In this document: in pieces, positions 15,694-47,835 of the stretch
Position numbering within the stretch: position 1 is the stretch's first letter
Layout of the letters: every line of letters begins with the position of its first letter
Source of the DNA: Candidatus Pacearchaeota archaeon
Lineage (GTDB): Archaea > Nanobdellota > Nanobdellia > Pacearchaeales > GW2011-AR1
Assembly: GCA_018304025.1 (NCBI GenBank)
Contig: JAGVXA010000002.1
Location: forward strand, 1 to 60,409
DNA length: 60,409 nucleotides
Direction: 5' to 3'
Program-made: the position numbers and the translations under genes
The notes under the pieces: generated by a model
What the model saw: the letters and a program-made list of their open reading frames with translations, nothing else
Told to the model about the DNA's origin: nothing
Databases searched by the model: none

Positions 15694-15764
15694 TGATCCC
15701 GCTAATCGAATTCTTTCTGAATTCTCAAACAAACGCTGCAATAACATCGTTCGAGGGATTTGAA
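15694..15764 (-). repeat. Duplicated 3' end of tRNA-Ile interrupted by a 51-nt insert
   Basis: Minus strand TTCAAATCCC (15764-15755) + 51 nt (15754-15704) + AGCGGGATCA (15703-15694), matching the tRNA 3' 20 nt. Confidence 0.85.
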
Positions 15765-15797: not shown

Positions 15798-15892
15798 TGA
15801 TCCCGCTGGGATTTGAACCCAGGACCTCTGCCTTTCTGATAATTTTTATGTAATATCAGAGCAGCGCTCTAACCAGGCTGAGCTACGGAATC
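15798..15892 (-). tRNA. tRNA-Ile(GAT) with a 20-nt canonical 37/38 intron (15834-15853)
   Basis: Acceptor GATTCCG/CGGGATC-A; anticodon arm CTGCT-CTGATA^A-GGCAG; T-arm CTGGG-TTCAAAT-CCCAG; BHB helix CTGA/TCAG. Confidence 0.93.
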
Positions 15893-15894
15893 TT

Positions 15895-15967
15895 GAGACT
15901 CTAAGCGAAGCGTGGTTTTGAGTCCTTTCTTTCTTGGACGATTAACCAGGCTGAGCTACGGAATCTT
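15895..15967 (-). repeat. Upstream duplicate of the tRNA-Ile 5' end plus fold-back insert
   Basis: 15943-15967 identical to 15870-15894 (25 nt); spacer ATCGTCCAAGAAAGAAAGGACTCAAAACCACGCTTCGCTTAGAGTCTC. Confidence 0.88.
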
Positions 15968-15987
15968 AGAGTTCTAACAAAATCTGC

Positions 15988-15997
15988 TTTTATAAAA
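15988..15997 (-). promoter_or_regulatory. TATA box for the tRNA-Ile locus
   Basis: TTTTATAAAA ending 23 nt before G1 of the upstream duplicate fragment. Confidence 0.55.
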
Positions 15998-16040
15998 TTA
16001 TCCCAAACAATTATTAATCTTAAAATTTAACAAATAACGG

Positions 16041-16112
16041 GCGTCGTTAGTCTAGTGGTTAAGATACGAGCTTCCCAAGCTTGTGACGCGAGTTCAATTC
16101 TCGCACGGCGCA
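16041..16112 (+). tRNA. tRNA-Gly(CCC)
   Basis: GCGTCGT/ACGGCGC-A acceptor; CGAGC-TTCCCAA-GCTTG; GCGAG-TTCAATT-CTCGC. Confidence 0.95.
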
Positions 16113-16177
16113 TTTTCTTTCACCGCAGAAAATTTTCATACAGAAAAACTTTATAACCCTTTTCGCTTAATAATGTC

Positions 16178-16624
16178 ATGGAAAAAAGAGCTCTAAGTCA
16201 AGTCATCGCAACTCTCCTTCTGGTATCTGTGTCTCTTACCCTCGCTGTGATAATTATCGCTTGGGCAAGAAGTGATATTTTTTCATTAAGTCCGCAAATC
16301 GACGCGGAATGCAGCGAAATTTATTTTGAATCGGAAATCCTTAAAATAGACGGAACAGATTATCTTTTTGCCGTTAACCTCGGCAACGTCAATATAATCG
16401 GCTTCCAAATCAATGTGATAGAAACAGATATGATTGAAAATAAAGAGAGTGTAGAAACAGAACTTCCTCCCGGAAAATCTCGCGAAATAAAGCTAAATTC
16501 AGTTTATTTAGAAGACAAGGAATTTTTGGTAGTGCCAATTATCGCAGCAAAAAAAATTGACAAAGAAATTCCTCTGACTTGTCCTGAAACTTACGGCCAA
16601 ACAATTGAGACGCCACATTCCTAA
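16178..16624 (+). CDS. Archaeal type IV pilin-like protein
   Basis: Class III signal MEKRA|LSQVIATLLLV, NLGN motif, Cys pair. Confidence 0.8.
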   Translation: MEKRALSQVIATLLLVSVSLTLAVIIIAWARSDIFSLSPQIDAECSEIYFESEILKIDGTDYLFAVNLGNVNIIGFQINVIETDMIENKESVETELPPGKSREIKLNSVYLEDKEFLVVPIIAAKKIDKEIPLTCPETYGQTIETPHS

Positions 16625-16655
16625 TCTTTAAAAATGCATTTTTCCTAAAACTAAG

Positions 16656-17222
16656 ATGGACTCGCTAAAAAAATTTTGGAAATTTTTGAATGAAGACAGC
16701 TGGCAATCCTGGCTGGTTTCTTTGGTGTTAATAGTCGTAATAATAAAATTTATCTTTTTTCCGGCGCTTTCTTTCATAACGCAAACGCCGCTGCCTCTTG
16801 TCGTCGTGGAATCCTGCTCAATGTACCACGAATCAAATTTTGAAGATTGGTGGGAAAAAAATTCCGGCTGGTACGAATCTAAAGAAATTGCTTACGAAGA
16901 ATTTAAAGAATTTCCTTTTAGGTCTGGGCTGAACAAGGGAGATATAATTTTTGTCTGGGGCAGAAGCGAATATAATTTAGGAGATATAATAATTTTTGAT
17001 GCAGGGGGAGAATATGCCAAGCCGATAATTCACAGATTAATAAGCACGAATCCTTATTCAACAAAAGGAGACCACAATCCTTCTCAGGCGTCTTTTGAGA
17101 CAAATATTCCTGATGAGAATTTACTTGGAAAGTCTTTATTTAAAATTCCTTTGGCTGGATGGGTAAAACTAATTTTCTTTGAACCGTTTCAGCCGCCGCA
17201 AAATAGAGGTCTTTGCAATTAG
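16656..17222 (+). CDS. Signal peptidase I (Sec11/S26B type)
   Basis: VVESCSMYH, KGDIIF, IIHR, TKGDHN. Confidence 0.9.
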   Translation: MDSLKKFWKFLNEDSWQSWLVSLVLIVVIIKFIFFPALSFITQTPLPLVVVESCSMYHESNFEDWWEKNSGWYESKEIAYEEFKEFPFRSGLNKGDIIFVWGRSEYNLGDIIIFDAGGEYAKPIIHRLISTNPYSTKGDHNPSQASFETNIPDENLLGKSLFKIPLAGWVKLIFFEPFQPPQNRGLCN

Positions 17223-17370
17223 TCGCTAATTCATATCGCTCGATATTTTTCGAAAGAGGACGCCAGCAATTTTCTGCGCAATGAGCAATTGCCTTAACAA
17301 ACAGTTACTATTAAAAAGTGTTACAAGAATATAAATAATCTTGTTTCCATTAAGCCCTAAATAATTTAAA

Positions 17371-17679
17371 ATGGAATTTTGTGAGCGATGCGGTGGAATG
17401 ATTCTGGTAAAAAATGATAAGGCGACTTGTGTTAGTTGCGGTCATAAACAAAAAAAGAAACCGCATATTAAAGCGGCGGAAAAAATAACGCAGCAGGAAA
17501 CAGTGGCTGTTATTAAAGAAGAGCAAGGCAATACAAACCCGATAGTTGAAATGAAATGCCCTAAATGCGGGCACAAAAAAGCATATTTCTGGACGATGCA
17601 AACTCGGTCGAGCGACGAGTCGGAAACTAAGTTCTATAAGTGCACGGCGTGCAAGCATACTTGGAGAAAATACAGGTAA
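17371..17679 (+). CDS. tfs: Transcription factor S (TFS/RpoM)
   Basis: MEFCERCG, CPKCGH, QTRSSDESETKFYKC. Confidence 0.95.
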   Translation: MEFCERCGGMILVKNDKATCVSCGHKQKKKPHIKAAEKITQQETVAVIKEEQGNTNPIVEMKCPKCGHKKAYFWTMQTRSSDESETKFYKCTACKHTWRKYR

Positions 17680-17957
17680 TGAAAAGAAAGACTAAAGTTA
17701 AAGCGAAGAGATTTCTTATCAACTGGAAAGGAAAATTAATTATATTAATTTATTCTGTCTTATTTTTTGCAGGCATAATTAATTATATTCTTCTTAATCA
17801 GCCTTATTTTCCAGCAGATACACTAATAGGACTTTTGTTATTGGTTCTTCTTTTTGCTTCATTAATTTTTTGCATAATCGCGATAATCTGGCTTTGTTTA
17901 AGAAAGGGTTCTGAAAGAGCCCCAAGGTATTTTTCAGGGACAAGTGTTCCATCATAA
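17679..17957 (+). CDS. Small two-TM membrane protein
   Basis: ATG overlaps the tfs stop (TAATG); two hydrophobic segments. Confidence 0.6.
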   Translation: MKRKTKVKAKRFLINWKGKLIILIYSVLFFAGIINYILLNQPYFPADTLIGLLLLVLLFASLIFCIIAIIWLCLRKGSERAPRYFSGTSVPS

Positions 17958-17973
17958 TTTTGATTTACCAATC

Positions 17974-17981
17974 TTTAAAAA
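17974..17981 (+). promoter_or_regulatory. TATA box for the tRNA-Lys locus
   Basis: TTTAAAAA ~29 nt before G1 of the upstream duplicate fragment (18010). Confidence 0.55.
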
Positions 17982-18007
17982 CCATTTCAATCTTCTTTAC
18001 TTGTCGA

Positions 18008-18083
18008 ATGGCCTCGTAGCTCAGTCTGGTAATCGTCCAGGAAGGAAAGGACTCAAACCAGTCTTCGCTATTGTGCCGTCAAC
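18008..18083 (+). repeat. Upstream duplicate of the tRNA-Lys 5' end plus fold-back insert
   Basis: 18008-18031 identical to 18084-18107 (24 nt); spacer ATCGTCCAGGAAGGAAAGGACTCAAACCAGTCTTCGCTATTGTGCCGTCAAC is homologous to the Ile spacer. Confidence 0.88.
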
Positions 18084-18085
18084 AT

Positions 18086-18159
18086 GGCCTCGTAGCTCAG
18101 TCTGGTAGAGCACTGGACTCTTAATCCAGGTGTCGTGGGTTCAAATCCCATCGGGGTCA
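18086..18159 (+). tRNA. tRNA-Lys(CTT)
   Basis: GGCCTCG/CGGGGTC-A; CTGGA-CTCTTAA-TCCAG; GTGGG-TTCAAAT-CCCAT. Confidence 0.95.
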
Positions 18160-18204
18160 TATGATATTGAGTGAAACGAAATATTATTAATCCAAAAATG
18201 ATTT

Positions 18205-18330
18205 GTTCAAATCCCTCACTCGACCACACTTGGGCGAGTGAATGAGAATTCTGAAGGAATTCACTTATCGGGGTCACTGAACCAATGTCGCCCAAGCGTG
18301 GTCAGTCTGGTGGTCGACATATGGGTCACT
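18205..18330 (+). repeat. Duplicated 3' end of tRNA-Lys interrupted by a 51-nt insert, followed by a further hairpin ending in a third gggtca
   Basis: GTTCAAATCCC 18205-18215 + 51 nt (18216-18266) + ATCGGGGTCA 18267-18276; gggtcact again at 18323-18330. Confidence 0.85.
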
Positions 18331-42509: not shown

Positions 42510-42870
42510 ATGCGTCGCAATTGGACTCGCTAAATTAATCTTCTCGGTGCGCAAATTGGACTTGCCTGTTCTTGCGGCTGGCAAGTCTTATCGTTAACAG
42601 CTCACTCCGTTCGCTGGTGCGCACCGAGTAATTGCTTCGCTGACAATTGCGAGTCTTATCTGTAAAATTTGCTCTTGATGCGTCGCAATTGGACTCGCTG
42701 ACAATTGCGAGTCTTATCTGTAAAATTTGCTCTTGATGCGTCGCAATTGGACTCGCTGACAATTGCGAGTCTTATCTGTAAAATTCGCTCCGCGAATTTA
42801 GCGACGCATCAATTTAGCGACGCATCAATTTAGCGACGCACAGAATCTATTTCGCAAATTTTCCGCGTCG
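42510..42870. repeat. Triply nested REP-like element stack
   Basis: Left arms tgcgtcgc at 42511, 42679, 42737; right arms gcgacgca at 42801, 42817, 42833; extra inner element 42543-42628. Confidence 0.88.
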
Positions 42871-47519: not shown

Positions 47520-47835
47520 TTGCGGAGAGAGTTAGTTTTAGGAGATAGAAAATTTGGTAAGAGGAGAGAGTTAGTGTGATAATATCGAGAAATTAGGAGA
47601 GAGATAATTATCCGAGTAGGATTTTGGGAAAGAGATAGTTAGTGCGATAGAATCGAGAAATTAGCCTTCGGCTAATTTCCGAGAATTTTGTGATAACAAG
47701 AGAGATTTTTATAGGAGAATAATTAGTGTGATAATATCGAGAAATTAGCCTTCGGCTAATTTCCGAGAATTTTGAATATTTAATTGAATTGATTAAATTA
47801 TACCATATCATTATACATAGAAATTTCCGAGAATT
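47520..47835. repeat. Second repeat family: purine-rich degenerate ~84-bp units with a gaaattagcc-ttc-ggctaatttc hairpin
   Basis: Hairpin at 47657-47679 and 47741-47763; ttagtgtgataatatcgagaaattag recurs; a second cluster lies at 56010-56290. Confidence 0.75.

Follow-up and report, generated by a model that had tools for sequence, protein, structure and literature searches.

How the interrupted, split, permuted and fragment-flanked tRNA genes of archaea originated has long been debated. Casposons target tRNA 3' ends and, to our knowledge, repeated tRNA ends have been documented only as a result of mobile-element integration. Passages of PMC3293823 describe a 5' tRNA fragment followed by a 1.8-kb recombinase element and a tRNA, and parts of the review PMC4033280 present the D-loop as a known position of non-canonical archaeal introns. 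The stretch considered here (hereafter the window) comprises positions 1 to 60,409 of contig JAGVXA010000002.1 (assembly GCA_018304025.1) from a Candidatus Pacearchaeota archaeon, and displayed two tRNA genes, tRNA-Ile and tRNA-Lys, each preceded by a copy of its own 5' end, a short hairpin and an inverted copy of that end. These units are designated tRNA-end fold-back modules. The genome is a 992-kb metagenome-assembled genome of a small groundwater archaeon, distributed over 29 contigs and 88 % complete. No description of the layout was found in the literature searched, which included a term search of PMC4033280.

Rfam/Infernal located three tRNA genes in the region concerned, tRNA-Ile(GAT) (15798-15892, minus strand), tRNA-Gly(CCC) (16041-16112, plus strand) and tRNA-Lys(CTT) (18086-18159, plus strand); at gathering thresholds they were the only matches in the whole window, with no C/D-box, H/ACA or other catalogued RNA. 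The sequence-only reading of this DNA had proposed that the Ile and Lys genes carry duplicated 5' ends with periods of 73 and 76 nt, and a repeat search found exactly this: direct repeats of 25 nt for Ile (15870-15894 and 15943-15967) and of 24 nt for Lys (18008-18031 and 18084-18107), both exact. The outer copy (S1) consists of the first 23 (Ile) or 22 (Lys) nt of the tRNA plus the two nt before them. Then come ATC, a hairpin with a stem of 4 bp and a purine loop of 10 nt, TCAA, an antisense segment (AS) of 21 nt imperfectly complementary to tRNA nt 1-21, a linker of four (Ile) or eight (Lys) nt and finally the intact tRNA. The inserts are 48 and 54 nt long and free of open reading frames (ORFs). 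tRNA-Gly, lying between the two, served as internal control and, as had been noted, lacks any end duplication (best 5' self-match score of 6).

At tRNA-Ile all components lie on the minus strand. S1 (nt -2 to 23, local alignment score 23) ends in the D-loop and occupies 15943-15967; the polar core, composed of ATC, the hairpin GTCC-AAGAAAGAAA-GGAC and TCAA, occupies 15918-15942 and was recovered by pattern match (15922-15939), fold and strict motif scan. AS, AACCACGCTTCGCTTAGAGTC, spans 15897-15917 and pairs with S1 in the minimum free energy structure, its reverse complement matching the sense copy at 11 of 14 positions. The linker TCAA (15893-15896) precedes G1 of the tRNA and is predicted to be single-stranded, and a putative RNase P site lies at its 3' side. 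The intact gene (RF00005, 57.3 bits, model 1-71) contains a canonical 20-nt intron at 15834-15853, which the bulge-helix-bulge (BHB) scan recovered; intron-less orthologues read CTGATAAGGCAG.

The Lys module lies on the plus strand and is built likewise, with S1 (nt -2 to 22) at 18008-18031, the polar core with hairpin GTCC-AGGAAGGAAA-GGAC at 18032-18056 (same three lines of evidence), AS, ACCAGTCTTCGCTATTGTGCC, at 18057-18077 and the predicted single-stranded linker GTCAACAT before G1 at 18078-18085, followed by the intact gene (69.4 bits, model 1-71). The D-arm part of AS displayed 11 of 14 matches, and GCC pairs with GGC. The insert had been described as complementary to the 5' part of its own tRNA and indeed, in the predicted folds, the distal insert pairs with the 5' copy in both leaders (dG -21.1 and z -3.3 for Ile, dG -24.1 and z -2.3 for Lys). 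The tandem G.A pairs reported for the antisense strand correspond to T.C/C.T mismatches present in both stems.

Fragmented metagenome assemblies such as this one, with its 29 contigs, invite the suspicion of a misassembly or chimera. The Ile duplication was spanned, without a single difference, by contigs from four runs of four studies, two of which may be the source of the assembly; the junction between the insert and the inner tRNA-Lys was bridged by contigs from two runs, again with 0 differences, and one contig spanned the whole paralogous layout at tRNA-Lys(TTT). Among the joints listed for these independent contigs, none skips 73 or 76 nt. Because independent contigs carry the layout and no listed joint skips a repeat unit, both duplications are genuine. 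The repeats are moreover shorter than the word length of the assembler, and the layout recurs with diverged sequence in other genomes, so that an artefact is as good as impossible and, raw-read confirmation aside, already refuted.

A survey of all tRNA loci for 5' duplications, which had been proposed as a check, revealed that the two modules are members of a larger set. A genome-wide search for closely spaced direct repeats had already brought many further tRNA ends to light. A single criterion was then applied throughout, namely a local match of 12 or more that begins at tRNA nt 1-4 and lies no farther than 220 nt upstream, and it identified a 5' copy at 13 of the 43 ARAGORN tRNAs of this genome. 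Two more, tRNA-Ser(GGA) and tRNA-Gln(TTG), displayed a decayed 5' copy that could be recognised by its hairpin and antisense segment. A copy of the 3' end was found downstream of ten of the 43, part of which were inspected individually. All 14 leaders folded in this genome displayed the same architecture, consisting of an S1:AS stem, an internal loop of 4x4 or 5x5, a short hairpin and a free purine-rich linker of 4-15 nt, with z ranging from -2.0 to -6.7. Multi-unit arrays aside, where homology extends upstream of S1, the repeat ends 0-4 nt from tRNA nt 1. Tandem arrays of two to three units were also encountered.

The flanks (A)ATC and TCAA(A) were common to 11 of the 14 leaders, while the hairpins enclosed by them were unrelated in sequence (GTCC/GGAC, GGAAT/ATTCC, GGATT/AATCC, GGC/GCC, GGGC/GCCC and GCAAT/ATTGC). 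GTCC-N10-GGAC occurred twice in the window against 0.11 expected, a number reached in none of 100 shuffles, and a third copy, with identical layout, precedes tRNA-Lys(TTT) on contig C11. The sequence-only reading had taken GTCC-R10-GGAC as the defining core; with three copies in the genome and only chance matches in public collections, it did not hold as such. Since the common flanks enclose unrelated hairpins, the GTCC core is one private variant and the defining trait is the succession of S1, ATC-hairpin-TCAA and antisense segment. As a search key, GTCC-N2-GAA-N-GAAAGGACTCAA yielded one match among public genome contigs, in a rumen Oscillospiraceae contig, and one among metagenome contigs; both were rejected as chance because no tRNA lay nearby and one, upon inspection, looked like coding sequence.

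It was also considered that a leader might be a decayed tandem copy of the tRNA. For 25 leaders, the insert was checked for similarity to the remaining part of its tRNA, and five reached a shuffle p of 0.02 or less; two of these were artefacts of S1 delimitation and the remaining three, Val (0.003), Thr of G007 (0.013) and Met of G007 (0.017), were unconvincing after 25 tests. The idea is kept alive for trailers only, by the mosaic of tRNA-Lys pieces found downstream of that gene (18187-18311, plus strand). According to 8-mer mapping and sequence, this mosaic is composed of nt 36-43 (18187-18194), nt 54-64 (18205-18215), a 51-nt insert with a GAATTC hairpin, nt 65-74 (18267-18276) and nt 12-21 (18302-18311).

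A homologous 51-nt insert with this hairpin splits the 3'-end copy downstream of tRNA-Ile. There, mapping of tRNA 8-mers on the flanks identified a pseudo-3' half on the minus strand (15694-15764), consisting of TTCAAATCCC (15755-15764), the insert and AGCGGGATCA (15694-15703). Within it, the same polar core, ATC-GAATTC-TTTCT-GAATTC-TCAA, was detected by strict motif scan and in the sequence at 15705-15728, on the plus strand and thus opposite to tRNA-Ile, with its TCAA side towards the tRNA. Complete modules were found in the trailers of tRNA-Arg(CCT) and tRNA-Thr(CGT), which read on the bottom strand as 3'-end copy, ATC, hairpin, TCAA(A), inverted copy, linker and tRNA terminus. The Arg(CCT) module reads GATGCGCCCGAG-ATC-hairpin-TCAAA-CGGGCGCAC-AGA-tRNA end, and the Thr(CGT) trailer contains two modules in tandem.

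This mirror arrangement proved to be general. A loose core expression was far too unspecific and was replaced by a strict ATC-hairpin-TCAA scan, which gave 54 matches genome-wide, no real excess over the 32-53 of shuffled sequences. Nine of the 54, however, were no more than 200 nt from a tRNA, a range that takes in just 2.3 % of the genome (~8-fold enrichment). All nine directed their TCAA side towards the tRNA: six lie upstream on its own strand and three downstream on the other. The same orientation was observed in all five near-tRNA matches of congeners G007 and G010, bringing the total for the genus to 14 out of 14. Three matches in two out-group genomes, 160-183 nt away from a tRNA, break the rule. 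As 5' modules lie on the tRNA strand and 3' modules on the opposite one, the layout points to a strand-symmetric insertion or duplication process acting on DNA at tRNA gene termini, and to neither an intron nor a sense-RNA motif.

An asymmetry of wobble pairs, sought as proof of structure at the RNA level, was absent from both comparisons made. The mismatches in the stems amounted to nine G.T, 13 A.C and 76 others, mostly of the transversion type; in the lack of any excess of G.U over A.C, the stems bear no wobble signature for a sense RNA. The antisense strand folded slightly more stably in 18 of 25 modules.

Promoter positions indicate which copy is the gene. TATA-like motifs start 29-35 nt before the outer copy at Ile and Lys, and none was seen before the inner tRNA. 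The box of the Ile unit, TTTTATAAAA (15988-15997, minus strand), lies ~23-32 nt ahead of the outer copy, its motif start being 29-31 nt before S1. That of the Lys unit, TTTAAAAA (17974-17981, plus strand), was detected by motif scan and is homologous to the promoter directly abutting tRNA-Lys in module-free relatives (L008, L015). Over all leaders, a TATA-like motif 22-40 nt before S1 was found in 15 of 27 and one before the inner tRNA in a single case; the leaders devoid of such a motif before S1 were mostly inner units of arrays. The promoter thus precedes S1, at Lys being homologous to that of module-free relatives, and therefore the module lies inside the transcription unit. Of the public runs that hold the stretch, none was listed as RNA.

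All leader-bearing tRNAs were full-length Infernal matches, over the whole model, at the inner copy. At Ser(GGA), Gln(TTG), the third and outermost Glu copy, and Cys and Ile of G007, the outer copies have decayed and no longer match the 3' strand of the acceptor. An archaeal RNase P RNA (RNaseP_arch, 130.5 bits, model 1-288) is present in the genome. Features expected of an RNase P leader were accordingly found in its position between promoter and nt 1, as read from the sequence, in the RNase P RNA and in the predicted single-stranded linker. The promoter position, the full-length inner matches, the decayed outer copies, the RNase P RNA and the lack of an in-register BHB at Ile and Lys together suggest that the inner tRNA is probably the functional gene and that the module would be a transcribed leader cut off by RNase P. 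It had been anticipated that the intact tRNA would depend on 5' processing, with which the location of the module between promoter and tRNA and the presence of RNase P RNA agree.

The same data were confronted with the converse reading, a D-loop intron with duplicated exon, in which the outer copy would be the true 5' exon of a leaderless gene and the insert and inner 5' copy would be removed by splicing endonuclease and ligase. Promoter spacing fits a start at the outer copy, outer and inner copies are identical at most loci, and in six of seven precursors the equilibrium fold builds the acceptor stem from the outer copy, leaving AS and the inner copy to form a compact hairpin in the D-loop. 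The reading is nonetheless highly improbable. An in-register BHB was encountered at none of the three Ile, Lys and Lys loci by the very scan that recovers the genuine 20-nt intron of tRNA-Ile. Under a lenient definition with 2-bp flanks nine of 25 leaders scored, mostly through palindromic 4-mers, and that definition produced a false positive in the control too. At several loci the outer copy is unable to pair with the 3' strand of the acceptor, an uninterrupted full tRNA is found in every case (model 1-71 matched without insert), and the 3' modules have no intron reading at all.

The distribution among relatives was assessed on the best 30 of the 36-41 Infernal tRNA loci of each other genome sampled. 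Congener G007 displayed 5' copies at 12 of 32 and 3' copies at eight of 32 tRNAs, and congener G010 at six and two of 30. A genome of another genus displayed one and none out of 34, a genome of another family none of either kind out of 32, and a class-wide sample of 30 genomes two and one out of 36, respectively. In other families of the same class, the succession of 5' copy, hairpin and antisense segment was found at tRNA-Thr(TGT), together with a 3' copy (L212, G061), and at tRNA-Lys(CTT) (L221, G109). The layout is thus greatly amplified in one Pacearchaeota genus and occurs at low frequency across the class.

Turnover between orthologues was considerable. Among the tRNA-Lys loci of 29 relatives, three displayed a 5' copy. 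For tRNA-Ile(GAT), ~14 orthologues were available in the genus and the leader was found only in this genome and in G007, with unrelated cores; it was absent from the closest relative of G007 in the sample. Conversely, cores of different tRNAs resembled each other within a genome, namely Ile and Lys here and Ile, Lys and Met in G007. The leader of tRNA-Cys was common to three species. Its flanks ATC...TCAA-TC(A/G)CC were kept while its stems were wholly different (GGGC/GCCC, GAATGC/GCATTC and GAAAC/GTTTC), and S1 and AS followed the substitutions in the tRNA. The pattern combines gain, loss, amplification and homogenisation with a hint of selection.

The sequence-only reading had left the choice between a structured pre-tRNA leader and a tiny element that inserts in D-loops while regenerating the gene, and each was partly supported. 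As to the leader, the unit lies within the transcription unit, behind the promoter, and folds back on the 5' copy. As to the element, the sporadic and fast-changing distribution and the mirror-image 3' modules speak for it, but the D-loop is not its sole target, since 3' ends are affected too.

If the leader were the essence of the matter, the hairpins at both ends would be under selection, as RNA or as single-stranded DNA, and their ATC/TCAA internal loop would be the recognition site of a binding factor. They might signal processing or stability, regulate tRNA maturation or be released as a small RNA or decoy, with the end copy as part of the function. The conservation of the Cys flanks through complete replacement of the stems, the tracking of tRNA substitutions by S1 with AS changing along, the single fold common to all leaders and the persistence of modules although direct repeats are deletion-prone are all in line with this. 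Yet the 3'-end motif, as RNA, is the reverse complement, and therefore one RNA-binding factor cannot read both ends. The stems without excess of G.U over A.C, a sense strand that does not fold better than its complement, the sporadic presence among orthologues and the lack of any Rfam family match other than tRNA likewise argue against a function of this kind, which we regard as unlikely.

The explanation preferred here is that tRNA-end fold-back modules are products of DNA-level insertion or duplication at tRNA termini and that the 5' ones are leaders removed by RNase P, to which we attribute a probability of about 0.55. Read towards the tRNA, a module comprises an exact copy of the terminal segment (10-25 nt from the gene end inward), the polar core (A)ATC-short hairpin-TCAA(A), an imperfect inverted copy, a linker of 3-15 nt and the intact tRNA. 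Some process aimed at tRNA gene termini would create this direct-inverted-direct triplication of the end, and modules might then be amplified in tandem, homogenised and easily lost. A 5' module would be transcribed as a leader from the tRNA's own promoter; its outer copy and antisense segment could pair while emerging from the polymerase, the inner complete tRNA would fold normally and RNase P would cut after the single-stranded linker.

Several points weigh against this explanation. In equilibrium folding, the outer copy closed the acceptor stem in six of seven intron-less precursors (P 0.75-0.98) with AS pairing to the inner copy, a preference that may partly stem from the multiloop terms of the energy model; the inner copy was used only in Ser(CGA), whose S1 is decayed, and shuffling of AS changed the ensemble of the precursor little. 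Thermodynamic sequestration of S1 by AS found no support in these folds and was abandoned. The leader model therefore needs kinetic, co-transcriptional folding, and the modelled equilibria suggest that modules may burden rather than help their genes. Exact direct repeats of 16-25 nt that are 50-80 nt apart should be readily deleted, so that keeping them would take selection or else frequent re-creation. The Cys leader has the look of a selected sequence, not of junk, and could have a function. Finally, no enzyme or mechanism was identified that copies a gene end both directly and inverted, and no match to a Y1 transposase was found in the 88 % of the genome that is available. An origin from IS200/IS605-type elements, suggested by the TCAA end and the hairpin, was rejected on account of this missing transposase and of a single hairpin that is too small.

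That archaeal tRNA genes are colonised at either terminus by a new polar hairpin element of ~30-60 bp, or by a templated DNA process, which each time writes a direct and an inverted copy of the gene end, is a more tentative proposition, held at somewhat less than even odds. If true, tRNA genes would be the target of a new mobile or duplicative mechanism, from which tRNA fragments, split or permuted genes and non-canonical introns could plausibly arise. Next to the integration of large elements, the modules would constitute a second and much more frequent route of tRNA gene disruption, through tiny self-pairing insertions that copy the 5' and 3' ends of tRNA genes, come and go between congeners and form arrays. 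They may serve as natural intermediates for testing models of tRNA gene disruption and point to some enzyme or replication pathway that recognises tRNA gene termini. A further prediction is that the lineage cannot dispense with RNase P, although its tRNA genes are otherwise nearly leaderless. On the practical side, modules mislead tRNA finders and may be mistaken for introns, pseudogenes or assembly errors.

Annotation of these tRNA genes displayed further irregularities. ARAGORN called tRNA-Ile(GAT) at 15798-15892 Ser(GGA), and tRNA-Ile(TAT) on C19 Ser(TGA), because it misplaced the intron; in automatic tRNA tables of the lineage, entries for intron-bearing genes are hence probably in error. 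It also reported, at L077 (G000:C13:57883-58360), a tRNA-Asn with a 258-nt intron that did not reach the Infernal cut-off. The last 24-28 nt of this tRNA-Asn recur twice downstream (periods 59 and 86), once behind the hairpin element described next.

A conserved hairpin element of ~45 nt, TTCGATTCGCTCTTGCTCG...GGCGAACGAAG, occurred in 15 copies in the genome (e.g. L076:156-202, corresponding to G000:C10:605-651, minus strand), of which 13 were located within ~120 nt of a tRNA. Its right end abuts a tRNA 3'-end copy, the reverse complement of such a copy or the 5' copy of tRNA-Lys(TTT). G007 displayed a different conserved element at the same position. The gene for the RNase P RNA precedes tRNA-Phe by 62 nt (L005, G000:C27:1662-2155), and tRNA-Phe is followed by two copies, with a period of 110, of the reverse complement of the left arm of the 45-nt element. 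A viral origin of this 3' element was considered and rejected, its 19-mer having four IMG/VR matches that all fell, by chance, in one conserved coding region without tRNA. Two repeats unrelated to the above were also noted. A tandem and dispersed repeat, GAGTCTTATCTGTAAAATTCGCTC..., with periods of 58-65 and no relation to tRNA, was found in the window at 42510-42727 and 2792-2812 and also at C4:8662 and C21:52858. A palindromic repeat, ATCGAGAAATTAGCCTTCGGCTAATTTCCGAGAA, representing another small hairpin family, was found in the window at 47571-47690 and at C10:44399, C12:38235 and C13:70213.

Among described systems, the borders of integrated elements come first. In passages of PMC3293823 that concern the tRNA-Thr fragment of Caldiarchaeum, as at attachment-site (attL/attR) borders of the SSV1 and pNOB8 type, a terminal direct repeat accompanies an intact, reconstituted tRNA and stops at the tRNA terminus, 5' or 3' targets are used and the pattern differs between close relatives. 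All this is shared by the modules, which likewise display a direct terminal repeat with an intact tRNA on one side. The outer copies could thus be repeats of the attL/attR type left by integrase elements that carry a tRNA end, the element now being, or having always been, a miniature cassette mobilised in trans. In favour speak the extent of the repeats, which at either end of the gene begin inside it and stop precisely at its terminus, just as archaeal integration borders do, the two tyrosine recombinase genes of the genome, one of them ~470 nt from tRNA-Asp, and a few distant tRNA-end fragments, e.g. on C11 and C21. The inserts, uniformly 28-60 nt long and non-coding, contain no integrase element, and the recombinase genes lie elsewhere in the genome. 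An inverted copy, which integration does not make, is always present. More than 12 different tRNA species are affected, which would call for many specificities or for a recombinase that reads structure, and the 19-mer of the 45-nt element (E45) had only chance matches in viral contigs. Together with the polar core, the tandem arrays and the involvement of a third of the tRNA genes, these differences make integration quite unlikely as the origin of the modules. The recombinase gene near tRNA-Asp (L198:958-1986, G000:C12:9470-10498) is a 418-codon ORF of the phage integrase family that starts after the tRNA and presents the usual picture of an integrated element.

Non-canonical BHB introns and split or permuted tRNA genes, as treated in parts of PMC4033280, resemble the modules by a short structured sequence that pairs with an exon and by their occurrence in small archaea. 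They differ in that modules leave a complete contiguous tRNA, duplicate the exon instead of separating it and lack an in-register BHB at the two loci of the window. REP/BIME and Correia elements and archaeal miniature inverted-repeat transposable elements are, like the modules, short, non-coding, intergenic, multi-copy hairpins with similar copies within a genome, a similarity seen here between the Ile and Lys cores and in the 45-nt element beside 3' copies. Dispersed copies numbered three for the exact core and 15 for the 45-nt element, next to the strict-motif count given above. Terminal inverted repeats proper to an element and a short target duplication of fixed length were not found in the modules, whose arms consist of the adjoining tRNA end over 10-25 nt.

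Fold-back template switching, of the DUP-TRP/INV-DUP type, shares the direct-inverted-direct order and short junctions; it would give the order of the copies but not the conserved polar junction, and the modules further differ by a segment always taken from the gene terminus and by recurrence at many tRNA genes. Spacer or casposon integration of the Cas1 type has in common a short insert, a duplicated flank of 14-37 bp and array-like tandem units, whereas the duplication in modules varies from 10 to 25 nt and the insert carries an inverted copy of the target; no Cas1 was seen in this work, in which none was specifically sought. The layout therefore shares single features with each of the known systems and fails defining features of each.

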